From: Candidatus Rokuibacteriota bacterium
GTDB lineage: Bacteria > Methylomirabilota > Methylomirabilia > Rokubacteriales > CSP1-6
DNA: 64,000 bases
NCBI GenBank assembly: GCA_016179965.1
Contig: JACPCF010000008.1
Location: 9,601-73,600 of the forward strand
Direction of reading: 5' to 3'
Below, piece after piece: positions 18,955 to 33,523 of this stretch. Position numbers and translations under genes: made by a program. How positions within the stretch are numbered: position 1 is the stretch's first letter; each line of letters begins with the position of its first letter. The notes beneath the pieces are model-generated. The model saw only the letters and a list, made by a program, of their open reading frames with translations, was not told the origin of the DNA and searched no databases.

Positions 18955-20397
18955 TCAGATGTGCTGCCTAAAGGCTCTGAACGCCGGGGTCCGTTGGATT
19001 CTCCGGCGGAGCCTCGCGTCCAGCCGCTGTGGGCGGGTGAGCGCCGCGGGCGCGAGCAGCCGGTCCAGGGCCGCCGGGTCCACGAGGCGCCGGCCCAGGA
19101 CGACCTCGCGCAAGGGGCGGCCGCGCGCCAGGGCCTCCTTCACCAGGGCGGCGGCGACATCGTACCCCAGGTAAGGGGAGAGCGCGGTAGCCTCGATCAG
19201 GCTCCCCTCCACCAGCGCCCGGGCCCGCCGGCGGTCCACCCGGAGCCCCTCCACGCAGCGGCTGCGCAGCAGGCGGAGCGCGTGGGTGAGGAGCTCGAGG
19301 CTCCGCCAGAGGTCGAAGGCGATCAGCGGCGTCATGACGTTGAGCTCCAGCTCGCCGGCCTCGGCCGCCCGCGCCACCGTCGCGTCGTTGCCCATGACCT
19401 GGAAGCACACCATCTGCACCGCCTCGGGGACCGACGGGTTGATCTTGCCGGGCATGATGGAGGACCCGGGCTCCACCGCGGGAAGGATCAGCTCCCCCAG
19501 CCCGGTGTGGGGGCCCGAGGCCAGGAGCCGGAGGTCCATGCAGATCTTGGAGACGGTGAGCGCGAGGTCCCGGAGGGCGGCGGAGCAGCGCACGAGGGGC
19601 ACCATGTTCCAGGTGGTCTCCACCGGGCTCCGCGCGGGTCGGAGCGGTAGGCGCGCGATCCGGGCCAGCGCCCGCGCGACCAGCCGCCCGAAGCGCGGGT
19701 GCGCGGTGATCCCCGTCCCCACGGCCGTCCCGCCGAGGCCCACCTCGAGGAGGTCGCCGCGGCAGAGGGTCAACCCCCGGCGGCAGCGCGCGAGCGCCTC
19801 GGCGTAGCCCGTGAACACCTGACCGAATGTGATGGGGACGGCGTCCTGGAGGTGGGTGCGTCCCGGCTTGACCACCCTCGCTGCCGCGCGACCGTGCGCT
19901 CGGAATGCTACCTCGAGCCGGCGGATTTCCTCCGCCAGCGGTGTAAGGAGTTGCAGCGCTGTCAGCCGCGCGGCGGTGGGCGTGACGTCGTTGGAGGACT
20001 GGCCCAGGTTCACGTGATTGTTGGGGTGGACCCGGTCGTAGGCGCCGCGGCGGCCGCCGAGCCGCTCGTTGGCGAGGTTGGCGATCACCTCGTTGGCGTT
20101 CATGTGATGCGGCGTTCCCGCGCCGGCCTGGAAGACGTCGAGGACAAAGGCCGAGTCCACCCGGTTGGCCCGCACCTGGTCCGCGGCCCACTCGATGGCG
20201 CGGGCCAGGCGCGGCGGCAGGAGCCCGAGCCGCCCGTTGGCCTCCGCCGCCGCCTGCTTGATCATCCCGAGCGAGCGGATGAAGGCGGGGTGGGCGCGGA
20301 GGCCGCTCAGGCTGAACGTCTGGCGCGCCCGCTCGGTGAAGATCCCGTAGAGGGCGCCGGCCGGCACCGCCTTCCGGCCGAGGCTGTCCCGCTCCAT
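18955..20397 (-). CDS. aspA: aspartate ammonia-lyase (fumarase/aspartase class II family)
   Basis: Signature GSSIMPGKINPSVPE with downstream VCFQVMGND, closer to AspA than to FumC; start set at the second Met matching AspA N-termini. Confidence 0.85.
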   Translation of the reverse strand: MERDSLGRKAVPAGALYGIFTERARQTFSLSGLRAHPAFIRSLGMIKQAAAEANGRLGLLPPRLARAIEWAADQVRANRVDSAFVLDVFQAGAGTPHHMNANEVIANLANERLGGRRGAYDRVHPNNHVNLGQSSNDVTPTAARLTALQLLTPLAEEIRRLEVAFRAHGRAAARVVKPGRTHLQDAVPITFGQVFTGYAEALARCRRGLTLCRGDLLEVGLGGTAVGTGITAHPRFGRLVARALARIARLPLRPARSPVETTWNMVPLVRCSAALRDLALTVSKICMDLRLLASGPHTGLGELILPAVEPGSSIMPGKINPSVPEAVQMVCFQVMGNDATVARAAEAGELELNVMTPLIAFDLWRSLELLTHALRLLRSRCVEGLRVDRRRARALVEGSLIEATALSPYLGYDVAAALVKEALARGRPLREVVLGRRLVDPAALDRLLAPAALTRPQRLDARLRRRIQRTPAFRAFRQHI

Positions 20398-20426
20398 GCG
20401 GGTGCGACCCCGGGACCCTCGTCGCT

Positions 20427-21575
20427 TCATGGGCGCCGGTAGAGGGCTTTGAGCCAGGGGGGGACGATGAAGGTGGAGGCCATGACCATGATGATCACCG
20501 CGGCGTACAGGGTCTGGTCGATGACCCGGTTGGCCAGGCCGACGCCGGCGAAGATCAACCCCACCTCCCCCCGGGGGATCATCCCCACCCCGACGGGCCA
20601 GCGCCTCACGCCCCGCCGGTAGACTCCGAGGCCGGCCGCGAGCTTCCCGAGCACCGCCACGGCGGTCAGGGCGAGGGCGAAGCCGAGGGCGCCCTCGCCG
20701 AAGGGGTTCAACGCCGCCGGGTCCACCTTCATCCCGACCGTGACGAAGAAGACGGGAACGAACAGGTCTGCCACCGGCTTGATCTGCTCCTCGATGTGGG
20801 CGCGCGGCTCGGTCCGGGCGAGGATCAGACCGGCGGCGAAGGCCCCGATGATCGCCGCGAGGCCGATCCGCTCGGACAGCGCGGCCAGGAGGACGCAGAA
20901 GAGCACCGCATAGACGATGAGGCTCCCTCGCGCCCGCATGCGCCCGACCCAGACGAGGAGGGTGGGGGCAAAGCGGATCCCCAGGGCGACGGCGAGGACG
21001 AGGAAGACCAGCGCCTTGGCGAGGATGAGGGCGACCGTGGCGAGGGAGAAGACGCCCGTCTGCACCAGGCCCGTGACGACGGCCAGGATCACGAGCCCGA
21101 GGACGTCGTCCAGGATCGCTGCGCCCAGCACGACGCGGGCGGCCGCATCCTGGAGGCGGCCCAGGTCCGAGAGCACGCGGGCCGTGATGCCGACGCTCGT
21201 GGCCGTGAGCGTCGCGCCGATGAAGACCGCGACGAGCGCCGGCTTCCCCCAGAAGACCGCGAGCGCGTAGCCCAGGGCGAACGGGCAGGCGATCCCCCCG
21301 AGCGCCACGACCGTGGACTGCAGACCGGCCCGGAGCAGTTCGCTCAGGTCCGACTCGAGGCCGATCTCGAAGAGGAGGATGATGACCCCGATCTCGGCCA
21401 GGACCTGCAGGATCTCCGACTCGCGGACGAGACCCAGGACTGCGGGGCCGACGATCACGCCCGCCAGCAGCTCGCCCAAGACGGCGGTCTGGCCGACGCG
21501 CTCCATCGCCTCGCCGGCCAACTTGGCCGCGAGCCAGACGATCACCAGGCCGAGCAGGAGCTCGCCGAGTCTCAC
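20427..21575 (-). CDS. monovalent cation:proton antiporter (CPA family, KefB-like transmembrane domain only)
   Basis: About 12 TM segments and the GEL/AGV antiporter motifs; intact copy of a module whose remnants recur at 30199-30330 and 31868-32100. Confidence 0.85.
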   Translation of the reverse strand: MRLGELLLGLVIVWLAAKLAGEAMERVGQTAVLGELLAGVIVGPAVLGLVRESEILQVLAEIGVIILLFEIGLESDLSELLRAGLQSTVVALGGIACPFALGYALAVFWGKPALVAVFIGATLTATSVGITARVLSDLGRLQDAAARVVLGAAILDDVLGLVILAVVTGLVQTGVFSLATVALILAKALVFLVLAVALGIRFAPTLLVWVGRMRARGSLIVYAVLFCVLLAALSERIGLAAIIGAFAAGLILARTEPRAHIEEQIKPVADLFVPVFFVTVGMKVDPAALNPFGEGALGFALALTAVAVLGKLAAGLGVYRRGVRRWPVGVGMIPRGEVGLIFAGVGLANRVIDQTLYAAVIIMVMASTFIVPPWLKALYRRP

Positions 21576-21600
21576 CTCTCCAGCTTACCTTACCCGGGCT

Positions 21601-22116
21601 TCAAGTCAGTAGCTTGACGGTTGCGGCAACCGTGAAGGTCACGGCCATCATGGCCAGGGCCGCACCCCAGGCGCTCGATGAGCTTGTAAGTGATCTCTTC
21701 CCGGTGCCGCGGCTCTGCCTTGAACTGGCGGTTGTTTGTGGCTCCCTCCTTTCGGGTCGACACCGCCGGACGGCGTCAGCCATTTCGATGGGGCAGCGCA
21801 CCGCGAGGCCAAACCGGTCCACGGGAAAGCAGGGATCGTAGTCGGGGGAAGAGCGGCGCTTGGGAAGCCGGGCCAGGAGGAGAAGGCCCAGGAAGGTGCA
21901 GAGCCCGGCGAAGAGGATTGTGAGCTCGAAGGCAATTACAACGAAGGGAGGGATCGAGATCACGGGCTTCCCGCCGGTAATCAGGTTCCACTTGAGCGAG
22001 GACCAGATCGTGAACGCGAAGCCGGAGAAGGTCCCAGTGAGTCCCCCAACCAGGGTGAAGAGACGGACTGGGCTGACGGGACGGCCCACCTCCACCGCCT
22101 CCTTGATCTCCTCCAC
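21601..22116 (-). CDS. DUF3341/ActD-like membrane protein; 3' end overlaps a degraded DUF465-gene homologue
   Basis: WNLITGGKPVISIPPFVVIAFELTILFAG...ARLPKRRSSPDYDP pattern resembles ActD-type two-TM proteins; the last ~45 codons of the ORF run through DNA homologous to the DUF465 gene of the antiporter module. Confidence 0.45.
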   Translation of the reverse strand: MEEIKEAVEVGRPVSPVRLFTLVGGLTGTFSGFAFTIWSSLKWNLITGGKPVISIPPFVVIAFELTILFAGLCTFLGLLLLARLPKRRSSPDYDPCFPVDRFGLAVRCPIEMADAVRRCRPERREPQTTASSRQSRGTGKRSLTSSSSAWGAALAMMAVTFTVAATVKLLT

Positions 22117-22261
22117 GGGGACCGGCGAGTACGCGGTGAAGTCGGTGAACCCCCGCGCCCGCAGCTCGCCGATCGCCCGGACAGATTACTGGGATCTCCT
22201 CGTGAGCGATCCTCCGCTTGCTCAGTACCTCGGGGCTCGAGGGTTTGATCTGGAAGTGGAA

Positions 22262-22300
22262 AAACGGGCACGCCCGGTTTGGGCATGCCCGTTTGACGAG
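22262..22300 (-). terminator. rho-independent terminator downstream of the DUF1344 gene (minus strand)
   Basis: On the minus strand AAACGGGCAUGCCC...GGGCGUGCCCGUUUUU: GC-rich hairpin followed by a U5 run, immediately 3' of the stop at 22312. Confidence 0.5.
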
Positions 22301-22311
22301 GGAAGAACCGT

Positions 22312-22566
22312 TTACTGCGAGACCTCAAAGCTCGTGACGATTTTCTTGCCGTCCCGCTCCTCGTAGGTGGCCTTCACGGAAGCCCCCTCCTTCAGGGCGT
22401 CCATTGAGAGGCCCTCGGCCATCCAGAGCTGGGTACCGTCCTCAAGGACGAATATCCGATCGGCGGGATCTACTTTCTGGATCTTCCCCCCGACCTGTCC
22501 AGCCCAGACACCGCCCGCTGAAACGACCAACAGCATCGCCAATGCGACTCCTAAGACCTTCTTCAT
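22312..22566 (-). CDS. DUF1344-like small secreted protein
   Basis: RBS GGAGGA before ATG; signal peptide MKKVLGVALAMLLVVSAGGVWA; about 60-aa mature domain. Confidence 0.6.
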   Translation of the reverse strand: MKKVLGVALAMLLVVSAGGVWAGQVGGKIQKVDPADRIFVLEDGTQLWMAEGLSMDALKEGASVKATYEERDGKKIVTSFEVSQ

Positions 22567-22772
22567 GACGGATCCTCCAGTTTTGGGGTGCAGGTAAGCG
22601 TCGCCGCATGGAGAGCCGGAGCTTCTGCTTCCGGAAACTCTCGCCGCAGGCTTGCCAGCCGACCTTTCCAAACCCTCCTATACCGGCCCTCTCTTACCGG
22701 CTGAAGAAAAATATCCAAACGTAGATGGCGAGCACTACCCCGAACCCCATGACCGTGCCGAGCTGCCCCACC

Positions 22773-23132
22773 CTAGTCACCTCCTGCCCGCGGGAAACCC
22801 CAAGGGCTCTCTCCCCTCGCCCGCAAGCGCCCCCAGCGCCAAGATGAAAGCGCCGCGACCAGCCGAGCGACAGTCTGACCTTGGACGCCTTTATGCGCGC
22901 GGACCCGTGATCGATCGCCAGGACTGACCGGGCCCGGTGGACTCCCCCGCCACCAGCCGTCTATGCGCCGCATGAGGCGCCGGGCTCGGCCGGAGCCCAG
23001 GTGGAGAAGGGCCACCCCAACCAGCAGGGGAAACACACCGGGGAGGTCGGGATGAACGAGCCCGATCGCTCCGACCGTCACCAGGGCCCACCCGAACCAT
23101 CTCCGAAGCCGCCGCCGATTCCTGATAGTCAT
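22773..23132 (-). CDS. small transmembrane protein, PGPGW-family-like
   Basis: Two TM helices flanking a P/G-rich turn (LVHPDLPGVFPLL); weak similarity only. Confidence 0.35.
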   Translation of the reverse strand: MTIRNRRRLRRWFGWALVTVGAIGLVHPDLPGVFPLLVGVALLHLGSGRARRLMRRIDGWWRGSPPGPVSPGDRSRVRAHKGVQGQTVARLVAALSSWRWGRLRARGESPWGFPRAGGD

Positions 23133-23219
23133 CGGCTTCCCTCCTCGATTACCCCAACCGCCACCAGACTCCAGCCGAGCACCTTCCTGGCTACGCCGGT
23201 CATCCTGCCCTCCAAGCTC

Positions 23220-23525
23220 TCACCGGAAGATCCGGAGCATCCCGGAGAGGAAGCCGCCCTCGCCCTCCCCCAGGCGCTCCAGTTCGCCGCAGTCGAGCCA
23301 GATCCCGTCGCAGCGCGAGCACTTGTCGATCTCGACTCCCCGGTAGTGGACCGGCACGAGTTCGCCCCCGCAGCGAGGGCAGAGCATGGCGCCGAGCTTC
23401 GCGATCCGCCGGCGGCTCTCCTCCATCTCTTCCCCCCGTCTGGCCTCCGCCTCCTTCCGCCGCCGCTCGAACTCCATCCGCGCGAAGTACTCTTCCTCCT
23501 GGTTGCTCGGTTTCTGGATTGCCAT
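23220..23525 (-). CDS. zinc-ribbon protein (zf-TFIIB-like CPxCG...CxxCxG)
   Basis: CPRCGGELVPVHYRGVEIDKCSRCDGIWLDCGELE four-Cys ribbon after an acidic, Arg-rich N-terminus. Confidence 0.6.
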   Translation of the reverse strand: MAIQKPSNQEEEYFARMEFERRRKEAEARRGEEMEESRRRIAKLGAMLCPRCGGELVPVHYRGVEIDKCSRCDGIWLDCGELERLGEGEGGFLSGMLRIFR

Positions 23526-23547
23526 CGTCACGCCTCCCTGGCGAAGC

Positions 23548-24888
23548 TCACGACAGCTTCTCACTGCCCGGGTTGGGGACACGCCCCACGGCCTCCCCCC
23601 AAGAGAGCCCCCCGATCCGGAGCTTCAGCAGACCGAAGAACCCCCGCCGGCTCTCCCGGCTCGCTACCAGGAAGAGGACCGAAAACACGAGGTACGAGTA
23701 GGCGAACAGGTAGCCCGCGGCGAACGCGAACCCGGGGAGCGATGCGAACAGCTGGGGGAACATTTGAGGGAGCAACTGGGTGAGGAGCTGGGTTGAGAAG
23801 AGCAAGAAGAGAAGCGTCCCCTCTCTGAGCGAGAGCGAGAAAGAAGCCAGCACCACGACCCCCAGGAGGGACTGGGCCGCGGTGAGGAAGATCTCCTTGA
23901 CCTGCACCGCGTCGAGCGGCATCGCCCCAATTTGGGCTGTGGAGAGGCTGTAGGCCAGGGGCAGTGCCCCTACCAGGAGCGTCCACTGGTTCACCTTGGA
24001 GGACAGGAGGATCCCCATGCCCGCCGCAGCGCTTCCGCGGAGGACGAACAGGGTCGCAACAATGAACTCGGGGGACTCGGAGGCCAGGGGCGCGAGCCAC
24101 TGGATCAGGAGGTACTCCGGGACCTGCAGGATCTTTCCTGTGGCGATCAGGGACTCAGCGAAGGGCTCCGCCGCCACGAGGATCGTAAGCCCGGAGAAGA
24201 GGAACATGACGACGGTGGTCGCCCGTCTCAACGGGATGGGAAGCCGTCGGATGAGCACGGGTGGCCCCACGAGGTGCGGATCCTCCACCGGCTGGCGCGT
24301 GACCGCTCGGAGGTAGAACCCGACGAGGGCGAGGAGCACCACCGAGTCCACCAGCGACAAGGTGCCTTTGAGGGGGATCAAAAAGGAGTAGCCGGTGGCG
24401 AGCAGTAGGTAGCGTAGCTCGATGCCGTGGGCCGGCTCCAGCTGAATCTCCGTCTGCCTCCGCCGGCTCTTAAGCCACAGAACGAAGACAAGCGCGGCCC
24501 AGCCGACCCCGATCAGGAGGCGGTTGGCTCCCGTCATATTGGCCGTGGCGTAGCCGACGTAGGCGGGATCCTTTCCGGCCTGCCAGGCCAGGTAGAGGTC
24601 TACGGCGTACTCGGGGAGGACGGCGATGATGGCCAACGCCGCGATGGCCAGGCTCCGCGGGATGTCCAGCTGGGCCAGCTCGGCTGCCCAGGAGAGGATG
24701 AACGCCGCGCCGAGAATGCCTGCCCCCGAAGAGAGGGCCTCGAGGGCGGACGGGAGGTGGGCCCCGCTCCACCGGACCAGGAGCCACTGGAGCGCCAGCC
24801 CAAACGTGGAGATAAGCCAGATCGCGTGCCCGGTCGTCCCATTACCTCGACCTGCCGCTCCAGCTGCCGTCATGGCATCGAAGCCCAT
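23548..24888 (-). CDS. CaCA-superfamily (Na+/Ca2+ exchanger-like) membrane transporter, divergent
   Basis: 10-11 TM segments with two alpha-repeat-like motifs (VLPEYAVDL and [17 protein letters not shown]); start codon uncertain (24888 or 24873). Confidence 0.55.
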
Positions 24889-25270
24889 CCTTTCCACGAG
24901 GATCGGAGGACGACAAAAAAAGGCCGGCAGAACGCCCCCTACGAGGCATCCCGCCGGCCTGTGCTCCAACTGGCCCTTCCCGGGAGGGAAGTGCCCTCTG
25001 GCGAACCCGCCGTGCGTCTAAACTACTTCAACCTTAGTGGGAGTCGTCCCCCTTGTCAAGGGCTCGTGGCCCACCCAGGACTTTTCGCCGCGCTTGGCCG
25101 CGTGATGCGCCTCGTTGACTTTCCTTCACAGTCCAGAAGATACTGAGGCCGTGGCGACAAGCAGTCCGGAACCGATAGCCCCCGCACCGGCCTGCGCGGA
25201 TCTGCTCTTGATAGAGACCTCAAGCTAGGCGCGGCTCCACAGTTCTCACCCGCAGCCTCGGCGCTCGACG

Positions 25271-25648
25271 ATGGCCGGAAAGACCAAGGGACAGGTCGAA
25301 GCGGAAATCAGCCAGACCCTGGTGAAGTTCGAGCTGGAGTACATGGGCCGAGGCCCTAGCGACGTCCGGACCCATCTCCTGGGGGACATGGTTGTGGTAC
25401 GGCTCAAGGGGATCCTCACCCCGGCGGAGCGGCAGCTCGTCAAGGCCGAGGGCGTAGAGCTGATCAAGCAGGTCAGGGCCAAGCTGCTTGAGACGGGGCG
25501 GTCCGTGCTGAAGCAGCGGGTGGAGCGGATCACCGGCCTCTCTGTCGTGAGCATGCACTCCGATCTCAGCACCACGACGGGAGAGCGGGTCATTCTCTTC
25601 GTCATGAGCGAGAACGTGGAAGAGAAGTTCGCGGGCCTCAGAAGATAA
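25271..25648 (+). CDS. DUF2294 (MpsC-like) protein, paralogue 1
   Basis: 125 aa; conserved with 25831-26196 and 28101-28478 (FELEYMGRGP... / LTPRS.EVR...G..L). Confidence 0.7.
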   Translation: MAGKTKGQVEAEISQTLVKFELEYMGRGPSDVRTHLLGDMVVVRLKGILTPAERQLVKAEGVELIKQVRAKLLETGRSVLKQRVERITGLSVVSMHSDLSTTTGERVILFVMSENVEEKFAGLRR

Positions 25649-25658
25649 ACGGCGTCGG

Positions 25659-25688
25659 CTTGACAGCAGGAGGTCGCCCCGGGTAGAT
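25659..25688 (+). promoter_or_regulatory. sigma-70-like promoter (TTGACA, 18 bp, TAGATT)
   Basis: Consensus -35 and good -10 located after the stop of DUF2294-1 and about 70 nt upstream of a strong terminator. Confidence 0.4.
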
Positions 25689-25754
25689 TGACTCAGAATC
25701 TGACGGCAGACTAGCCAGAAGGCACTTCCCTCTGGAGGGGCCGGCTGGAGCGTA

Positions 25755-25795
25755 GGCCGGGGGAGACTGGCAGAGGTCTCCCCCGGCCTTTTTAT
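25755..25795 (+). terminator. rho-independent terminator (GGCCGGGGGAGAC, loop, GUCUCCCCCGGCC, then UUUUUAUU)
   Basis: 13-bp perfect GC-rich stem, 8-nt loop and T-run. Confidence 0.6.
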
Positions 25796-25830
25796 TGTCC
25801 GGGTCCGAACCAGGAAGGGAGGGATCACCC

Positions 25831-26196
25831 ATGGAGCGGCAAGAGATGGAGCGACGCCTTGCCGAGCTGACACAGGGGTTCTTCCGGGCCAAGCTGCGCC
25901 TGACCCCTCGGTCGATGGAGGTCCGGGAGGAGGGCGACGCGCTGGTTCTCAGGGTCAACGGGTTCGTCGCCCCGGCTGAGAGGGCGATGATTGACCACCC
26001 CAAGGATCGGTGGGCGATTGAGGACTACTACCTCCGCCTGTTCGATCAGCTCACGCCTCTGCTGAGAGCTGGGGTCGGAAAAGCCGGTCCCCTCGTCAAG
26101 GTGCAGACGTTTCTCGATCTTTCAAGTGATGAATACCGCTGTATTTTGACCTTGGCGAGGCAAGGCGAGGTGATGTGGGCGGATTCTCGCGAATAA
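25831..26196 (+). CDS. DUF2294 (MpsC-like) protein, paralogue 2
   Basis: RBS GGAAGGGAGGGA before ATG; about 60% identical to paralogue 3 over the N-terminal 100 aa. Confidence 0.7.
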   Translation: MERQEMERRLAELTQGFFRAKLRLTPRSMEVREEGDALVLRVNGFVAPAERAMIDHPKDRWAIEDYYLRLFDQLTPLLRAGVGKAGPLVKVQTFLDLSSDEYRCILTLARQGEVMWADSRE

Positions 26197-26209
26197 GGAG
26201 GGAGCAGGG

Positions 26210-26455
26210 ATGTGGCCATTTGGGAAAATCGCCTGCGGGGTCTGTGGTGAGCGCTTTTCGAAGGGCGAGCTGAAGCTCTCACTTCGCGAAAGAAGCGTCG
26301 CGGTCTGCCGCCACTGTTTCGAGGGCTGGTGGATGCGGGGCCGGAAATGCGACCGGTGCGGGGAGCAGGTGACAGGGACTCAGGCCGTCGCGGTCTTCCC
26401 CGAGCACCGGAGCCTCGGGCACTTCGACTGCGGCGGGGTCCCCCTGAGCGCATAA
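26210..26455 (+). CDS. small Cys-rich zinc-finger protein (candidate anti-sigma factor or sigma-associated regulator)
   Basis: RBS AAGGAGGGAG; 81 aa with CGVCG...CRHC...CDRCG...C, i.e. at least two CxxC pairs; sits immediately upstream of the sigma-70 gene. Confidence 0.55.
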   Translation: MWPFGKIACGVCGERFSKGELKLSLRERSVAVCRHCFEGWWMRGRKCDRCGEQVTGTQAVAVFPEHRSLGHFDCGGVPLSA

Positions 26456-26592
26456 CCTCCGCCGGGCGCAGGACCGACTTCGAATAATGGGAATGGGGCC
26501 GATCCCTCCCGCTCCTACGAAGCGCGAAGCCGACTCATGAAGCGGCTGGGAGAGCTTCAACACGCCCTCCACCAGCTGAGACGTGCCGTATC

Positions 26593-28047
26593 ATGACCTT
26601 CAGCGAGCTTGTCCATCCCCGTCCGCAAGGCGTGAGCCTGGAGCCGGTTGAGCCCGCCGACCGGACCGTGGTCTGGGACGAGGAGCCTGTGGGCCACGGC
26701 GACGCCCCCCCGTCGCTCCCTTCCGCTCCCCAAGACCTCGTGCGCACCTACCTGAGGGAAATCGGAAACCGCCCCCTGCTGACGGCGGCCCAGGAAGTGG
26801 AGATCTGCCGTCGGCTCGAGAGCGCCCAAGCGGAACTCCGGCGAGCGCTCGCCGCAATCCCGCTGGCTGTCCAGAAACTCATCGACCGTGCCGACAGCGC
26901 GCGGAAGCACGCCACCCCGCTGGATGAGCTGATCCTTCTTCCCGACGGGAGGGAACCCAAACGGGAGGAGGTCAAGCGGATCCTCGCCGCATTTGCCCGG
27001 ATCAAGCGGCTTGAGCGGGAGATCGAAAAGCTCCGGGCTGACCTCAAAGACCGGCGTCGCTCGGCGTCGACCCGCGCGAGCTATCGCGGCCTGATCGCTC
27101 GGCGCCGCGCGGCCATTCAACAGGTAGTGGCTGGCCTTCCCATCAAGCCGGCCCTCGTGGACGAGCTGGCCGCAGAGGTCCAGCGCCTGAACGACGAGAT
27201 CCAAAAGCTCTCGGCGGGCTCCACGGTTCGGCGGCGGGGGCAGCAGCTCCGCGCTCTGGAGGCCAAGATCGGGCTCCCCCGCCAGCAGCTCCAGGGGCTT
27301 CTGGCGATCATCGCCGAAAAGCAGGGGGGCGTGCGTGAGGAGAAGGGCGAGCTGGTCGAGGCGAACCTGAGGCTGGTGGTCTCGGTGGCCAAGCGATACC
27401 AGAGGAGTGACCTGTCGCTCCTGGACCTCATCCAGGAAGGCAACATCGGGCTCATGAAAGCGGTGGGCCGATTCCAGTACCGCCGCGGGTTCAAGTTCTC
27501 GACCTACGCCACCTGGTGGATCCGGCAGGCCATCACCCGCGCGATCGCAGACCAGTCCCGGACCATCCGCATCCCCGTTCACATGGGTGAGGTCCTGCAC
27601 CAGCTCTCACGGCTGCACCGGTCCCTCATGAACGAGTTGGGGCGCGAGCCCACGCTCGAGGAACTCACCCGCCGAATGGGCATTCCTGACAAGAAGGTCC
27701 AGCTTATTCTGACGTCTTCGCGGATCCCGGTATCGCTGGAGAAACCGGTCGGCGAGGACTCCCAGCTCAAAGATTTTCTCCAGGACACGCAGACCGTCTC
27801 GCCCGAGAGCGAGCTCTTCGGCCGGGACTTGAGCCGGCAGGTGAAGCGGGCGCTGTCCACGCTTTCTGATAGGGAGCGGGAGATTCTCCGTCTCCGCTTC
27901 GGGATCGGGCGGGAAGGCGAACACACCTTGGACGAAGTCGGCCGTCACTTCTCGGTGACCCGGGAGCGGATCCGCCAGATCGAGGCCAACGCCTTCCAGA
28001 AGCTCCGGCTCCGGAAGGCAAGCCTCAGGGTGCTGATCAAGAGCTAG
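26593..28047 (+). CDS. RNA polymerase sigma-70 factor, RpoD-like (regions 1.2, 2, 3, 4)
   Basis: Region 2 [34 protein letters not shown] and [30 protein letters not shown] match RpoD better than RpoS; region 4 HTH at the C-terminus. Confidence 0.9.
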
Positions 28048-28100
28048 CCGGAGGCATTCGCTATCTCTTGTCCGTGTCGTGATCCAGGGAGGGCCCGCCC

Positions 28101-28478
28101 ATGGAGCGCCAACAGGTAAGGGAGCGAATCCGCGAGCTGACGCTGGCGTTCTTTCAAGCCAAGCTGGGCCTGACCCCTCGGTCGGTGGAGGTCCGGGGCG
28201 GGGGAGACACGCTCGAGGTCAGGGTCAGGGGGTTTTTCGCGCCGGCAGAGAAGGCGCTGATTGACCACCCCAAGGAGCGACGGGCCATCGAGGACTACTA
28301 CCTCCGGCTGTTTGATCAGCTCCTTCCTCTCTTGAACGCCGGGGTCGGAAAGGCCGGCCCCATTGTCAGGGTCCAGACTCTTCTCGATCTTCGGGGCAAT
28401 GAATGCGTGTTCATGGTGCCCCTGGGGAAGGAAAGCGAAGTAATTATCCAGAATCCTGCGGAGGCCGAGCGGGAGTAA
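28101..28478 (+). CDS. DUF2294 (MpsC-like) protein, paralogue 3
   Basis: Strong similarity to 25831-26196 (LTPRSVEVR, FAPAEKALIDHPKERRAIEDYYLRLFDQL). Confidence 0.7.
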   Translation: MERQQVRERIRELTLAFFQAKLGLTPRSVEVRGGGDTLEVRVRGFFAPAEKALIDHPKERRAIEDYYLRLFDQLLPLLNAGVGKAGPIVRVQTLLDLRGNECVFMVPLGKESEVIIQNPAEAERE

Positions 28479-28984
28479 GCAGCAGCGGCGCGGGAAATAA
28501 GGAGATCGGGGGAGCGATCCAGCGACGAGACGACTCGGAGCGAATGGGACTCTGCGCCAGCAAACGTTACGACGACAAGCGCTGACTATTAGCGTCTTTG
28601 CGAGGAGGAGGCGGCGATGTGGAAATGGGTAGGCGTGACGATCACGGCCACGGCGGTAGCGGCGATGACCCTCGGCTGCTCTCAGCAGCCGTCAGGGACG
28701 GCAGCGGTGATCGAGGACAAGATCTACACGGTGACGCCGGCCTCGGTGAAGGTGAAGGCCGGGATTCTCGCGGGCGAGGTCACGGAGATGAGAGTCACGG
28801 AGCGGGTCGAGAAAGGCTCCGGCCGCGTCGTTTCCCCGGCGAAGCTCACGGGGACGCTCAAGCTGAAGAATAGCTCTAAGGATCAGGCCGTCCGCCTTGT
28901 TGGGGGAAAGATCCAGTACATCGATGCCCAGGGGCAACCGATCAAGCTCGAGGAGACACGGACCGAGCCGACTATTAAGAGCCT

Positions 28985-29170
28985 CTAACAAAATGAGCCT
29001 GCAGGATTCAGGTAATTCCAGCAGATGAGGGAGCACCCGAGAGACAGAAACGCTTCATGAATCTCTGGACGGCGTTCGTAGCGAACACGCAGGCGACGGA
29101 ATTGGTGCAGCCACGCGAGGGTCCGTTCCACCACCCATCGATAGACACCGAGCAGGTTGCCCAGACTCAT
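28985..29170 (-). pseudogene. IS5/IS4-family (DDE_Tnp_1) transposase C-terminal fragment
   Basis: RWVVERTLAWLHQFRRLRVRYERRPEIHEAFLSLGCSLICWNYL is the conserved C-terminal block of IS5-family transposases; the N-terminal ~250 aa are absent. Confidence 0.6.
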
Positions 29171-29193
29171 AACGCTGGATGCTAGCCGTCTCG

Positions 29194-30198
29194 TCAGTGG
29201 CCTGGTGCGCCCAGGGTCGCCACAACCACTGCGCCCACCAAGTAGATGGACGCCATCAGCACCAGGCCAGTCGCAGCCACCAGGCTATGGAGCCGGTTGC
29301 GCCCCAGTATCAGCCCCAGCCCCAGCAAAATCAGGGCGATGGCTACCCCTCCGGCGACGAAGTGGGCGGGCTCGGTCTGATTGGTGAGGATACCGTCGCG
29401 ATAGAAGAGGTCGGCGTAGAACAGGATAGTGACATTGAAAGCGCAGCTACCGTACAGGCAACTGACCGCCAGGTCCACAGCCCCCATGCGGGCGGCGGCG
29501 ATGGTCGATGACGCCTCCGGCATGGTGGTCACCAGGGAGACGGCCAGGATGCCCAGGGTGCTGGAGGCCACGCCCGTGATCTCGGCAATCTGGTCGCTAC
29601 TCCAGGCCAAGAAGAATCCGGCCACTATCACCCCTGCGGAGACCAGGGCAAACATCAACGAGGCCCGCTGCAGGGTCATGGCCGGCTCGTCTCCTTGCTC
29701 CTCATCATTCTGGGGGCGAGTCACGTACACTAGCCGCATTGCCACTACATACAGCACCAGGAGGATCACCGAGGATAGCCCGATGTTCCACAGGGAGACC
29801 TCCATCTTTACCGCGCCGAACATCACGGCTGCTCCGGTCATGATGGCTGCGGACACAATCAGATAGCCCTGCTCCGGCGCTACCCGCTGCAAGAAGCGCT
29901 TGCCACCGAACGCCAGGGCCACCATAGACAGGGTGAGCATGTTGAGCATGTTGGCCCCCAGCACGTTGGCCACCGCCAGCTCCGGGTTGGGCGGACTAAG
30001 CCGCACCGCAGAGATGTTGGTCGCCAGCTCTGGTAGGGATGTGGCTAAAGCCAGCAGGACGGTGCCCACGAAGAGACGGCCCCAGCCGGTCAGGGCGGCC
30101 AGGGCGTCGCTGTATTTGGCGAGCTGGGTGCCAAAGAAAATAACTGACGCAGCGCTGGCCAGGAATATCAATACTGCTATTGCCAGGTCACCACTCAT
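29194..30198 (-). CDS. CaCA-family Na+/Ca2+ exchanger-like membrane protein (YrbG-type), apparently intact cargo gene
   Basis: RBS GAGGT before ATG; 10 TM segments with two alpha-repeats (GTSLPELATNISA and MPEASSTIAAA). Confidence 0.8.
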   Translation of the reverse strand: MSGDLAIAVLIFLASAASVIFFGTQLAKYSDALAALTGWGRLFVGTVLLALATSLPELATNISAVRLSPPNPELAVANVLGANMLNMLTLSMVALAFGGKRFLQRVAPEQGYLIVSAAIMTGAAVMFGAVKMEVSLWNIGLSSVILLVLYVVAMRLVYVTRPQNDEEQGDEPAMTLQRASLMFALVSAGVIVAGFFLAWSSDQIAEITGVASSTLGILAVSLVTTMPEASSTIAAARMGAVDLAVSCLYGSCAFNVTILFYADLFYRDGILTNQTEPAHFVAGGVAIALILLGLGLILGRNRLHSLVAATGLVLMASIYLVGAVVVATLGAPGH

Positions 30199-30330
30199 TC
30201 ACGGATACCTCATCAGTTGCTGGGCCCAGTCGACTTCTCCGGCCTCACGCGCGTGATGCCGGCGCTCTGGCCCGCTCCATTCCTCCCCGGCCAGCTTGGC
30301 GGCCAGCCAGACGATGACCAGCCCGCGGAG
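30199..30330 (-). pseudogene. remnant of the KefB-like antiporter 5' end (N-terminal ~20 codons plus upstream DUF465-gene fragment to 30500)
   Basis: LVIVWLAAKLAGE matches the N-terminus of the 20427-21575 protein; 30380-30500 is homologous to the DUF465 gene (…IARTDNRQFKARLRHDEQIIQGLIEKL). Confidence 0.5.
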
Positions 30331-30581
30331 CTCCGCCATCGTCCCTGGTGTGAAGGATCCCACCGGTAAATTCAGGGGGAGCCGAGCTTCTCGATGAGCC
30401 CTTGAATGATCTGTTCGTCGTGCCTCAGTCGCGCCTTGAATTGACGGTTGTCGGTCCTGGCGATCTCCATGCGGAGATCGCTCAGTGCGCATTTCGGTCG
30501 TCGTGAACACCCCGATCGCTCCATCATGAACGCTCAGATCGGCGCATGGTGATCGGAGCGCAGCGACGCTGGGCGGTTCAG

Positions 30582-31195
30582 TCAGTCGTCGAGCTTGGCC
30601 TCCTTTCTCCGTGAGGGTCCTTTTAGCACAAGTCGGTGGGCGTTGTGAAGGAGGCGGTCGCAGATCGCATCGGCCAGGGTGGCGTCGGCCAGGTAGTTAT
30701 GCCACTGGGCCGGCGGGAGCTGGCTGGTGATGATGGTCGAGCGAGTGCCATAGCGATCCTCGAGGATCTCGAGCAGGTCGCGGCGCTCCGGGTCCTGCAC
30801 GGGGGCGAGGCCCCAGTCGTCGATCACGAGGACGTCGAGGCGGGCGAGCTTGCCGAGCAGGCGGATGTAGGTGCCATCGGCGCGGGCCAGGGTGAGCTCG
30901 TGGAAGAGGCGAGAGGCGCGGCGGTAGCCGGCGCGATAGCCCTTGCGGCACGCCTGATGTGCCAGGGCACACGCGATGAAGCTCTTCCCGACGCCGGTGG
31001 CGCCGACCAGGATCACGTTGTGGTGCTCAGCGACCCAGCGGCAGGTGGCGAGCTGGCGGACGACGGCCTTGTCGAGCTCGCGCCGGGCCGGGTAGTCGAT
31101 CGCCTCGAGACACGCCTGCGAGAGCTTGGCCTCCTGGAGGGCGCGGACCAGGCGCTTGGCCCGATGCGCCCGGGGATCTGCCCAAAGAGGCTCTG
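30582..31195 (-). pseudogene. IS21-family IstB helper ATPase, N-terminally truncated fragment
   Basis: Walker A LVGATGVGKS, Walker B DVLVIDDWG, C-terminal LLHNAHRLVLKG; upstream frame shows ...LVRALQEAKLSQACLEAIDYPARRELDKA matching IstB region 2; about 45 N-terminal residues missing. Confidence 0.7.
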
Positions 31196-31867
31196 TGTCA
31201 AGTGGCTTTCAGCAAGCTGGAGGATGAAGTACCGGGCATGCCGGATCAGGCGCCCACCGGTCTTGAACACCCGCTGCTGTAGGCTCGTTAGTGACCAGCT
31301 CTGAATGGCAGGGGGCAGGACAAGCCGACGCCAAAAACCTTGCTCATTTTGTTAGAGGCTCTAAGTTTCCCACGTACGGCGCCGAGCGGCTCGACCCTGG
31401 GCAGGATGCGACCCAGTCCGTGGACGTGGACTTCCCCGCCGAAGCCCTGAAGGTGAAGAAGCTGAAGGAGATCCGCCTCGAGCTCACGTACATCCCGTCA
31501 CCGTACAAGGAGGAGACGGTCAACTTCACCGTGTCGATCAGCGGCCAGTAAGTCGGGGAGGTGGCTTCCCCCGCAGTCACCTCCGAGAAATCAAGCGTAA
31601 TGTGGGCGGACTCTTCCTAACAAGGAGGCCGGGCGCGGAAAAATGAAAACAACTGGTGGGCAGGGACAGTATTGAACCGCCGCCATCAGGATTTTCAAAT
31701 ACTTGATCCCCATCGCTTGTCTCAGCGAGATGAATGGAAACCCACCAAATTGAGCCCGGGAAGTGAAACCCTTCCACACTACACTCAACAATTCGCCAGT
31801 CGAGGCGGCATTGCTCTGCGACGACGCTGGGTATTGCGGCCACCGAAGGTCGAGACCATGATCATCG

Positions 31868-32100
31868 TGACCAGCGCGGAGTAGAGCTCTTGTTCGACCA
31901 CGCGGTTGGCAAGGCCGATGCCCGCGAAGATCAACCTCACCTCGCCGCGCGGGATCATGCCCACGCCGACTCGCCCAAGACGGCGGTCTGGCCGACGCGC
32001 TCCATCGCCTCGCCGGCCAACTTGGCCGCGAGCCAGACGATCACCAGGCTGAGCAGGAGCTCGCCGAGTCCCACCTCTCCAGCTTACTTTATCCGGCTCC
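31868..32100 (-). pseudogene. third, internally deleted copy of the KefB-like antiporter (C-terminal ~30 codons fused to N-terminal ~35 codons plus native upstream region)
   Basis: 31868-31965 is homologous to 20480-20600 (…ANRVVEQELYSALVTMIMV). 31966-32100 is homologous to 21470-21600 including the start codon and the leader; about 870 bp of the gene is missing. Confidence 0.55.
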
Positions 32101-32120
32101 TGTGTTGGTAGCCCGGAACT

Positions 32121-32315
32121 TCATGCGGAATCCGTCGTCACGGAAGCCGAGCTCAGGCGCTCGATGAGTTTACGAGCAATCTCTTCATCGCGCTTTAGCT
32201 GCGCCTTAAACGTGCGGCTGTCCGTCCGGGCGATCTCGCGGTCGAGATCGGCCAGGTATCTCTTCAGCGTTTCCCGCAGGAACTCATGCTCTTCTCGAGT
32301 CAGCGTGAGCGTCAT
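32121..32315 (-). CDS. DUF465 (YdcH-like) small protein, intact copy
   Basis: 64 aa, LADLDREIARTDSRTFKAQLKRDEEIARKLIERL resembles the YdcH/DUF465 pattern; degraded homologues sit upstream of both other antiporter copies. Confidence 0.55.
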   Translation of the reverse strand: MTLTLTREEHEFLRETLKRYLADLDREIARTDSRTFKAQLKRDEEIARKLIERLSSASVTTDSA

Positions 32316-32336
32316 CGGGTTTCTCCTTTCGGAAGG

Positions 32337-32435
32337 CGTTCCTCAAGGCAGGAGCTTGATGAGTGCCGCGATCCCGAAGATGACTGCCATCATGGCGAGG
32401 GCGACAAGGAGACCCGAGTATTTCCTCTCTTTCTC
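32337..32435 (-). CDS. 32-aa single-TM micro-protein (MQEKERKYSGLLVALAMMAVIFGIAALIKLLP)
   Basis: Short ORF conserved with the sequence ...WGAALAMMAVTFTVAATVKLLT* at 21601-21670; below ORF-track length cutoff. Confidence 0.3.
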
Positions 32436-32848
32436 TTGCATAGCAATCCTCCGTCACAGACTTCGAGTGTAAAATGAGCGAAACCGGTGGATCAGAAGGG
32501 CCGGACGGAGGTCAGGCGTCTTCGGTGGCGTTCCGCGGAGATAGGTCGGATGAGGGGTCCCGGCGCGGGAGAAGCGCGATGCGATTGGAAAGATTCACAT
32601 TCATTCGGAGATCGACCGAGGCCTGCAAGGTAAGTCGTGGCAGGTCGATGGCCAGGCGGAGTGGCTCCACCCGCGGCGGCGGCGCGAGCTCCTGCCCCTG
32701 GACGGGCTGGACCCTGAGTGCGACCACTGACTCGTCGGGGTTGAAACGGAATGCCCCTGCCGAAGGGACCGCCAGGTCCATCACGACGTGGGCCAGAACG
32801 AACAGGATGAAGAGCCGCTTCACGCCTCCTATAATACGTTAATCGGCC

Positions 32849-33523
32849 ATGGTCGAGCCAGCCCCCTTCGTCTTCTTCGGGTGCATCGAGCTGAGGGAGA
32901 TTCTCGGCCTGCGAGCCCGGGACGAGCGGGAACTGATGGAGCTCCTGGAGCGCGCCCCGCTCGGATCGGTCTACTACCACACCCACAGCGTCTTCCTGCG
33001 CCACCACCAGATTACGGGCGCCTATCCGAATGACTTCGCCAACTGGGTGGCCTCGCAGGTGCGGGACCAGGTGCTCGGCGAGCGCCTGGCCGTCGTGGAC
33101 CCGTTCGCCTTCCCCAGTCTGGAGGCCCTGCGGGAGGAACTCGTGTCCATCATCGATCACCACATCGCGGCCCTGCATCCGGTGCCCCGGGTCGTCTTCG
33201 GGGATCCGTTCTTCTTCGTCCAGTCGCACGTGATCGAGGTGCCCACCGGCCTGGAGGCGTGTACCCTCGGCGAGTTTCGCCGGTGCCTCGCGGAAGTGGA
33301 TGCCAGCTCGATCTACTTTCACGCGCTGGAATCCAGGGTTCGGCGCGGGCACCCCCATGGGGATTTCGCCGACTGGATCGGGCAGGCGCTGGGGCTCCAG
33401 TCCCAGGCGGAGGAGATCGCGCGGATCAATCCCTACCTGGGGGGCCTGGAGGAGATCCGCGCCCGGATGCTCCGGCTCCTCGACGCTGCGCTGGGAGGGG
33501 AGGCCCCCGCCGGTGGCGGCTAG
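32849..33523 (+). CDS. hypothetical protein translationally coupled to treT
   Basis: 224-aa protein-like ORF whose stop overlaps the treT GTG start by 11 nt; no family assigned. Confidence 0.5.
   Translation: MVEPAPFVFFGCIELREILGLRARDERELMELLERAPLGSVYYHTHSVFLRHHQITGAYPNDFANWVASQVRDQVLGERLAVVDPFAFPSLEALREELVSIIDHHIAALHPVPRVVFGDPFFFVQSHVIEVPTGLEACTLGEFRRCLAEVDASSIYFHALESRVRRGHPHGDFADWIGQALGLQSQAEEIARINPYLGGLEEIRARMLRLLDAALGGEAPAGGG

Follow-up and report, generated by a model that had tools for sequence, protein, structure and literature searches.

Three related copies of a small-gene and antiporter unit

We analyzed a stretch of 64,000 nucleotides (the window) from a metagenome-assembled genome (MAG) of a Candidatus Rokuibacteriota bacterium (assembly GCA_016179965.1, contig JACPCF010000008.1, positions 9,601 to 73,600), which contains three related copies of a unit consisting of a cation/proton antiporter gene and two small genes. 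One of these is a micro-open reading frame (micro-ORF) for a putative peptide with a single transmembrane (TM) helix; the other, whose intact version in the window encodes 64 amino acids (aa), is predicted to specify a helical hairpin and is referred to here as the hairpin gene. All parts of the three copies, which we named A, B and C, are on the minus strand, and positions are those of the whole window (Table 1). Listing of ORFs, repeat finding and a blastn comparison of region 20300-22300 with the window located the copies where an initial annotation, made from the sequence alone, had reported them. The self-comparison and matches to the hidden Markov models (HMMs) described below also bore out its statement that two are degraded, and none of the three is a complete module.

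Copy A (20427-21735), which was thought to be an intact module at 20427-21740, is intact only in its antiporter gene. Upstream of this gene are remnants of the hairpin gene and the micro-ORF, in that order, which is the opposite of the order in copy C. A stop codon lies just upstream of the adjoining ActD fragment. The chimeric ORF formed by this fragment and the micro-ORF remnant (21601-22185, minus strand, 171-194 aa) has three hydrophobic segments, and no other act genes are nearby. On the downstream side the antiporter gene is adjoined by a fumarase-like gene, and no insertion sequence (IS) was detected flanking copy A.

The antiporter of copy A matches PF00999 over nearly the entire profile (E=2.5e-70; 237.7 bits, cut-off 26.2; profile positions 10-372 of 375), which places it in the CPA superfamily (Na_H_Exchanger). 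The top-scoring NCBIfam model is TIGR00932 (CPA2), with 195 bits, which is under its cut-off of 238.3; the other nearest models are KefC, MagA, YbaL and KefB. The scores with KefC (99.9 bits, cut-off 752) and KefB (72.4 bits, cut-off 804) are far below their cut-offs. The protein is therefore not KefB or KefC itself, and its former description as KefB-like is only loosely right. Moreover, its 382 residues include no C-terminal KTN/RCK (TrkA_N) domain. Reading of the sequence indicated about 12 hydrophobic segments; LTATSVG, LDDVLG and IPRGEVG, which also occur in it, are motifs typical of CPA2 cores. Exact-protein look-ups with this antiporter returned no record.

In copy C (31845-32441) the situation is reversed: the micro-ORF and the hairpin gene are intact and the antiporter gene is broken. 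The latter ends after ACCTTC at 31845, 42 nt before the position of the stop codon, so that its last 14 codons are gone. The internal deletion of about 870 bp that had been proposed for this gene is real. It measures 877 nt in the coordinates of copy A (about 21470 to 20594), is out of frame and has 1 nt of microhomology; the loss of the 14 terminal codons comes in addition to it. The 32-aa micro-ORF is intact as described, at 32343-32441 and not at 32337-32435. A scan for promoters and terminators around locus C revealed nothing over the shuffled background, and a search with Rfam over 20000-33500 at E≤0.1 did not identify a riboswitch or other RNA element in the conserved leader.

The main repeats are significant in formal alignments. 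In blastn comparisons within the window, A 21453-21597 and C 31953-32096 are 93% identical (E=1.6e-56), with an ungapped core of 127 nt at 97%; A 20469-20594 and C 31845-31970 are 79% identical (E=4e-26); A 21482-21552 and B 30260-30325 are 82% identical over 71 nt (E=1.5e-12); and the micro-ORF sequences A 21601-21660 and C 32343-32402 are 77% identical over 60 nt (E=1.4e-6). The pieces of the hairpin gene gave weaker nucleotide matches between copies (72%, E=0.003, and 82% over 33 nt, E=0.009). These are secured by the protein-level search, which found the same three places: an HMM built only from family members outside the window had exactly three matches in the six-frame translation, in copy C (1.4e-27), copy B (1.4e-20) and the remnant of copy A (1.3e-5), the next one having E=7.2. 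An HMM of the micro-ORF, built from two other genomes, detected copy C (1.6e-12) and, as second-best match in the window, the remnant of copy A (0.016; next E=1.1). Copies A and C form direct repeats at a distance of 10.4 kb. Their shared parts are only 71-79% identical beyond the leader and the 5' stretch, and identity between copies is about 69-77% for the small genes versus 97% for the leader and the antiporter N-terminus. At the protein level, the hairpins of B and C share 49% identity.

Table 1. Positions of the copies, the cassette and adjoining features in the window
Feature	Position	Strand	Description
Copy A antiporter gene	20427..21575	-	Sole intact antiporter gene of the three copies; 382 aa; CPA2-type cation/proton antiporter core
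Copy A leader	21576..21597	-	Shine-Dalgarno GGAGAGG; likeness to copy C starts abruptly at 21597, right after the stop codon of the micro-ORF remnant
Copy A micro-ORF remnant	21601..21666	-	Last ~21 codons, …GAALAMMAVTFTVAATVKLLT followed by stop; in-frame C-terminus of the chimeric ActD ORF
Copy A hairpin-gene remnant	21668..21739	-	Last ~24 codons, TNNRQFKAEPRHREEITYKLIERL; out of frame with flanking pieces; HMM profile positions 32-57
Orphan ActD fragment (alternative complex III subunit)	21781..22182	-	PF11821, E=4.2e-36, profile positions 14-150 of 170; both ends truncated
Lipoprotein-like gene	28617..31551	+	182 aa; split by the cassette into halves 28617-28978 and 31365-31551
Cassette	28979..31361	.	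2,383 bp, mobile-insertion-cassette-like; perfect 20-nt terminal inverted repeats GAGCCTCTAACAAAATGAGC at 28979-28998 and 31342-31361
IS5-type transposase, C-terminal fragment	28985..29170	-	61 aa, adjoins the left inverted repeat; PF01609 (DDE_Tnp_1), E=1.7e-6, profile positions 159-198 of 200
Na+/Ca2+-exchanger-family gene (NCX)	29194..30198	-	Intact, 334 aa, cassette passenger; PF01699, E=8.6e-26; TIGR00367 positions 4-306 of 312
Copy B	30199-30527	-	Hairpin gene cut at its 5' end, plus ~20 antiporter codons that lead into the intact NCX gene
Copy B antiporter stub	30199..30339	-	Begins with ~20 N-terminal codons (MAELRGLVIVWLAAKLAGE…); the rest is unrelated sequence whose frame stays open as far as the NCX start
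Copy B hairpin gene	30372..30527	-	Type B, like P0005 and the gene of L008; first ~20 codons replaced beside the IS21 end; HMM profile positions 19-58
IstB (IS21 helper) fragment	30582 to about 31158	-	PF01695, E=8.1e-47, profile positions 95-236 of 238; istB similarity reaches 31158
IS1380-type transposase, C-terminal fragment (DDE_Tnp_1_4)	about 31160-31270	-	Weak match: PF13701, E=0.01 only
Filler	31622..31844	.	223 bp, relatively AT-rich; joins the region downstream of the lipoprotein gene to truncated antiporter C
Copy C antiporter, C-terminal piece	31845..31970	-	Codons ~328-369 of 382; PF00999 profile positions 324-363
Copy C leader and antiporter codons 1-~35	31971..32096	-	Joined out of frame to the C-terminal piece; …AVLGE joined to SAWA, then stop
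Copy C hairpin gene	32121..32315	-	Intact, 64 aa; protein identical to the hypothetical protein HYV92_00265 (locus tag) of a Candidatus Rokubacteria MAG; motif L-[SA]-D-L-[RD]-x-E-I-A-x-T-D
Copy C micro-ORF	32343..32441	-	Intact, 32 aa, single TM helix, own Shine-Dalgarno
p103 gene	32512..32823	-	103 aa, hydrophobic N-terminus; upstream of the unit in the related contigs L001-L008 at 52-100% identity

The unit in other Rokubacteria and the hairpin family

Near-identical contigs were found in two other Rokubacteria assemblies and in Logan assemblies. Contig L006 is 98% identical to locus C and contains p103, the micro-ORF, the hairpin gene and an antiporter gene that is intact up to the end of the contig (134 codons, 93.7% identical to A). 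In L007, from another Rokuibacteriota MAG, p103 is followed by a 40-aa micro-ORF, a 57-aa hairpin gene and the antiporter gene. L005 lacks the micro-ORF and has p103, the hairpin gene and a full antiporter gene of 382 aa that is 90% identical to A; its sequence runs 49 nt past the antiporter stop codon into a fumarase-like gene, as at copy A. The fumarase/aspartase-like gene of L005 (2270-2391) has an apparent internal deletion of about 390 codons, with about 17 first codons present and, within 20 nt, a match to codons ~406-424; alternatively, this Logan contig is chimeric.

From these arrangements, the four-gene unit of p103, micro-ORF, hairpin gene and antiporter gene is real and conserved within Rokubacteria, with p103, which has no Pfam match, as its probable first gene. 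The three-gene unit proposed by the initial annotation is thus found intact in L006 and L007 (and in L005 without the micro-ORF), its conservation being confined to Rokubacteria. The four genes are likely to form one operon, given gaps of 22-70 nt, a common strand and a conserved order. The Shine-Dalgarno sequence, start codon, hydrophobic core and KL(L/V) end of the micro-ORF are kept in the window, in L007 (40 aa) and in L008 (31 aa; another Rokuibacteriota MAG), and the micro-ORF and its Shine-Dalgarno sequence are conserved in L006 too. The ratio of non-synonymous to synonymous substitution rates (dN/dS) of the micro-ORF is 0.3-0.8, calculated from very few sites. In L001, an independent assembly of the same strain and otherwise 100% identical to the window over 10.7 kb, 71 nt including the micro-ORF start are missing (L001 9917-9926 versus window 32392-32462). 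Within the population, the micro-ORF is therefore either polymorphic or dispensable.

Comparison with L001 and L002 also gives insight into the decay of antiporter C. The 877-nt internal deletion is common to the window and L001. L002, which is 97-98% identical to the window, has a different deletion: codon ~54 of the antiporter gene is joined to the same downstream junction (equivalent to window 31846), and the C-terminal piece is absent. As the window, L001 and L002 share this junction, the 3' truncation would have come first and the independent deletions later. Thus, decay at locus C appears to have been recent and stepwise. The filler (31622-31844) was matched only in the same-lineage contigs L001 and L002; other relatives part from the window at 31603-31621.

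The neighbourhood in the window contains otsA, otsB, a 566-aa CPA2 gene with a TrkA_N domain, TreT, DUF5752, three MpsC genes, two Na_Ca_ex genes and a sigma-70 gene. The 566-aa antiporter gene (~34919-36619, minus strand) is located between otsB and treT, and in L002 and L007 otsB is followed by treT without it. The otsA/otsB part of L002 is only 79% identical to the window versus 97% for its downstream part, a mosaic that suggests recombination. Two of the three MpsC (DUF2294) paralogs share a 300-nt direct repeat of 78% identity (25863-26162 and 28133-28432), and 209 bp of the window (25850-26058) are missing in L107-L109. A literature search combining Rokubacteria and antiporter produced nothing relevant.

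The hairpin gene of copy C is a member of a widespread family by its match to a profile of independent members. An exhaustive profile search with a limit of E≤1e-3 detected at least 842 representative clusters (clustered at 50% identity). Almost all of these proteins are about 60 aa long and have the motif L-S-D-L-R-M-E-I-A-D-T-D…F-R..L-K and also LSDLRMEIADTD. The 64-aa protein itself had no Pfam match up to E≤10, none of 70 members examined matched a relevant Pfam or NCBIfam model, and no sequence in the PDB was matched at E≤0.01. AlphaFold2 with the family alignment predicted a two-helix hairpin (pLDDT 87.9, helices 7-30 and 34-57), for which Foldseek against the PDB returned generic helical hairpins only, none at E≤1e-3. 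Between Rokubacteria orthologs the dN/dS of the hairpin gene is 0.30-0.38; therefore, the gene is real and under purifying selection. Among the members P0029, P0072, P0091, P0010 and P0143 some are tandem two-copy proteins, P0010 is fused to a C-terminal TM helix and one follows an N-terminal domain of ~165 aa without a Pfam match; the longer and fused members gave no Pfam match either. A narrower genome scan for hairpin loci produced four loci, including one beside an integrase gene (L009); another (L010) lies within a gene for shikimate kinase and is a false positive.

The initial annotation had assigned the 64-aa protein to DUF465 (PF04325), which we rejected: neither the protein nor the fragments in A and B match PF04325 even at E≤10, and the 70 relatives gave no match to it. 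A profile-profile comparison by hhalign with a YdcH-type reference sequence, itself verified as DUF465 at E=2.6e-15, gave a probability of 0.5% (E=0.11, 18 columns). The hairpin protein resembles DUF465 proteins (Escherichia coli YdcH type) in size, predicted helicity and a short local LDxEIAR sequence, and this last resemblance probably prompted the label.

Outside Rokubacteria, the genes downstream of the hairpin gene encode an H+-PPase, AI-2E transporters, an ABC exporter or a Yip1-type membrane protein, and elsewhere GNAT, DJ-1, histidine phosphatase, sigma-70, Endo_dU or uncharacterised proteins, or there is no downstream gene on the same strand. No micro-ORF was detected near the hairpin gene of the H+-PPase locus (L014). 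In view of these varied neighbourhoods we rejected a family-wide association of the hairpin gene with transporters. The search for such small genes upstream of antiporter genes, suggested along with the initial annotation, thus succeeded in Rokubacteria and met with varied neighbours elsewhere. By gene context, the link to cation transporters appears to be specific to the Rokubacteria lineage and not a property of the family. The idea of a dedicated regulatory set for the antiporter does not agree with the unrelated genes beside the hairpin gene in other phyla.

The cassette that carries copy B

Copy B is located, as the initial annotation had noticed, inside an IS-bounded element. The terminal inverted repeat of this cassette occurs only twice in the window, with 0 occurrences expected by chance, and the cassette is flanked by a 3-bp TAA target duplication (28976-28978 and 31362-31364). 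In-silico removal of 28979-31364 restored the 182-aa ORF of the lipoprotein-like gene, for which more than 2,300 homologs were found, the best being exactly 182 aa long with 99% identity and 100% coverage. Moreover, the empty site is present in seven related contigs (L107-L113); identity of their flanks to the window is 92.5-99%, and 97-99% for the closest four. The inverted repeats, the target duplication and the empty sites show that the cassette is a true insertion. Only fragments of DDE_Tnp_1, IstB and, weakly, DDE_Tnp_1_4 are present inside it, with no intact transposase, and a search of the window for an intact IS having these inverted repeats found none. Region 28900-32000 contains no further pseudogene pieces of window genes.

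Within the cassette the stop codon (TGA) of the antiporter stub abuts the start codon (ATG) of the NCX gene, and this gene is likely to use the former 5' region of an antiporter gene. The same arrangement of type B hairpin gene, stub and NCX gene, with the same stub-NCX junction, is found at 92% identity at the trehalose locus in L008, the likeness of the hairpin region beginning at 30485. In that contig it is preceded by p103, a micro-ORF of 31 aa and internal remnants of an antiporter gene, and no IS was detected in the examined part of the contig. Because L008 carries the arrangement at this identity at the trehalose locus, it would be older than its IS context in the window. In L008 3462-3901 the antiporter remnants (aa ~65-146 and ~268-296) come directly after the micro-ORF, and a hairpin gene is absent between the two; this is another independently decayed copy at the same locus.

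The cassette is the only IS-derived DNA between copies A and C, which are otherwise separated mostly by ordinary chromosomal genes. The core of this segment (NCX, MpsC, sigma-70, MpsC and the lipoprotein gene) is present in relatives with other flanks. In L107 (7077-8381), L108 and L109 an IS256-family transposase gene (Transposase_mut) followed by PPDK is located right after the lipoprotein gene, where the match to the window ends (~31603), and in L111-L113 a response-regulator adenylate cyclase gene is found at the equivalent site. On comparison of these contigs, the site at ~31603 is a recurrent breakpoint.

Origin of the copies and comparison with known systems

The locus is one of paralog decay plus insertion of a mobile cassette, in a rearrangement-prone region of osmotic and cation-stress genes. 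We consider it probable that the copies are old, diverged paralogous units that decayed separately, with copy B carried by the cassette. In this lineage a small putative operon is located beside the trehalose genes (DUF5752/TreT) and encodes the 103-aa protein, a TM peptide of 31-40 aa, a hairpin protein of 57-64 aa and the 382-aa antiporter. The genome would hold three old paralogs of this unit, each decayed in a different manner. Copy C, at the native locus, would have kept the small genes, its antiporter gene having lost the last 14 codons at the rearrangement junction (31845) and then having suffered the frameshifting 877-nt deletion. Copy A would have kept the sole antiporter gene predicted to work, beside the fumarase-like gene, while 3' scraps of its small genes were welded to the ActD fragment. 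Copy B would descend from an older derivative in which NCX replaced the antiporter body after about 20 codons and the hairpin gene, leader and start region stayed as 5' region. This arrangement, along with debris of IS21 and IS1380 type, would later have been caught between two ends of IS5 type, after which the resulting transposase-less cassette of 2,383 bp transposed into the conserved lipoprotein gene. We observed the repeats and junctions, the cassette insertion (by its target duplication and by the empty sites), the units that are intact in related contigs, the family assignment and the purifying selection on the hairpin gene, and from these we infer the order of events and co-transcription.

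The initial annotation had explained the copies by IS activity, a single module being duplicated to three places by composite transposition or IS-mediated recombination and two of the copies then decaying. Consistent with this, copy B is inside an inverted-repeat-bounded transposed unit, copy C abuts a rearrangement junction 480 bp from the cassette, debris of IS5, IS21 and IS1380 type is present, and relatives have an IS256-family transposase gene at the same boundary downstream of the lipoprotein gene. However, with the small genes only 69-77% identical, the copies are old paralogs and not recent IS-made duplicates; they (and hairpin proteins B and C, at 49%) are too diverged for events contemporary with the IS debris. 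In addition, the cassette insertion is absent in relatives with 97-99% identical flanks, the structure of copy B exists in L008 without IS in the part examined, the gene order differs between A and C, copy A has no flanking IS sequence and the DNA between A and C consists mostly of ordinary genes. A duplication by IS elements is therefore improbable. We regard it as very unlikely that one locus or its strain variants were mis-joined or collapsed in the MAG. In favour of such an error are the assembly of the MAG from short reads, the ends of Logan contigs L003 and L004 within the A/C repeat (window 32020), the existence of strain variants (L001 and L002) and the lack of independent support for the upstream junction of copy A. 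However, the deletion and the 3' junction of copy C are present at 100% identity in the independent assembly L001, and the 3' junction also in L002; the copies differ by 3-30%, which is not what a collapse of identical repeats would leave; L008 and L002 corroborate copy B; and the target duplications around the cassette are clean.

A further possibility is that a functional three-part system was preserved by complementary loss, with the small genes kept at C and the antiporter gene at A, acting in trans. The window does contain one intact copy of each component, the dN/dS of the hairpin gene is 0.3-0.38, and the micro-ORF, its Shine-Dalgarno sequence and its reading frame are conserved in three diverged genomes. 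The fusion of a hairpin to a C-terminal TM helix in P0010, and the hairpin genes of other phyla that precede genes for an H+-PPase, an AI-2E transporter or an ABC exporter, would also fit. Nevertheless, the family context is heterogeneous (GNAT, DJ-1, histidine phosphatase, sigma-70 and Endo_dU, some genes standing alone), L005 has no micro-ORF and that of L001 is broken, and there is none near the hairpin gene of L014, which makes this explanation unlikely. That the two small proteins act on the transporter, with one working copy of each kept in trans, is accordingly speculative and has little probability. It is also doubtful that the hairpin protein and a KdpF-like micro-peptide constitute a portable 5' module for CPA2 and NCX, and elsewhere for H+-PPase and AI-2E-type carriers, which recombination could place before different transporter genes (copy B being an example) and which would be retained in trans after duplication. 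Several observations weigh against the old-paralog explanation as well. The absence of the micro-ORF in L005 and its disruption in L001 mean that it is dispensable in at least some strains. No independent contig was found across the upstream junction of copy A (ActD remnant, hairpin remnant, micro-ORF remnant and leader). More than one rearrangement is required, because L107-L113 carry the core of the A-C segment with other flanks. A single homologous exchange between the A and C repeats interconverts the state of the window and the single unit of L005 type, and the event may have been an integration or, in the relatives, a deletion; comparison of the GC content, overall and at third codon positions (GC3), of antiporter pieces with that of the loci did not discriminate the native locus. 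Finally, the C-terminal piece of C, which is 83% identical to L005, is further from A (79%) than L005 is from A (86%), which fits a distinct paralog or pseudogene drift.

With old, separately decaying paralogs as the probable explanation, the locus mostly illustrates how genomes change by ordinary processes, here in an uncultured phylum: the stepwise decay of a paralog is visible across strain-level contigs, a 5' region was apparently captured by a different transporter gene, and a transposase-less cassette was caught together with its empty site. Apart from the unannotated family of the hairpin protein, it is a matter of ordinary gene decay. The DUF465 label should not be propagated, since the gene belongs to a widespread family of hairpins of about 60 aa without a Pfam or NCBIfam model. 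In Rokubacteria the hairpin gene and the micro-ORF are tied to cation transporters in a neighbourhood of trehalose and Na+ homeostasis genes (otsA/otsB, TreT, three MpsC, two NCX and two CPA2), and they are a concrete candidate for the control of an antiporter by small proteins.

By its full-length match to PF00999, antiporter A resembles the CPA2 antiporters (KefB/KefC, NapA and MagA-type cores). It differs from KefB/KefC in having only 382 aa, in lacking the KTN/RCK domain and in scoring under the NCBIfam cut-offs, and the ancillary proteins that KefB/KefC use, KefG/KefF, are unrelated to the small genes of the Rokubacteria unit. As for a role, the small proteins would most likely be partners that assist or regulate the transporter: the TM peptide would do so as KdpF or AcrZ does, and the hairpin protein would be a cytoplasmic oligomerising adaptor. 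Like KdpF, AcrZ and MgtS/MgtR, to which it is compared by analogy only, the micro-peptide is 31-40 aa long and has a short charged N-terminus followed by one TM helix, and it is encoded in the same putative operon as a membrane transporter and just upstream of it. It differs in being dispensable in L001 and L005; the likeness is one of gene position and ORF, and no sequence kinship is expected.

The cassette resembles the IS5-family insertion sequences in having a DDE_Tnp_1 fragment beside one end, and a 3-bp TAA duplication is typical of IS5-group elements. In its inverted repeats, target duplication, passengers and absence of a transposase it is similar to mobile insertion cassettes such as MIC231 of Bacillus cereus. 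These are inverted-repeat-bounded elements that generate a target duplication and carry passenger genes without a functional transposase (PMC3913671). The cassette in the window differs from those known in holding debris of two other IS types, and its passenger differs in being a cation exchanger with what is likely to be the captured 5' region of an antiporter gene.

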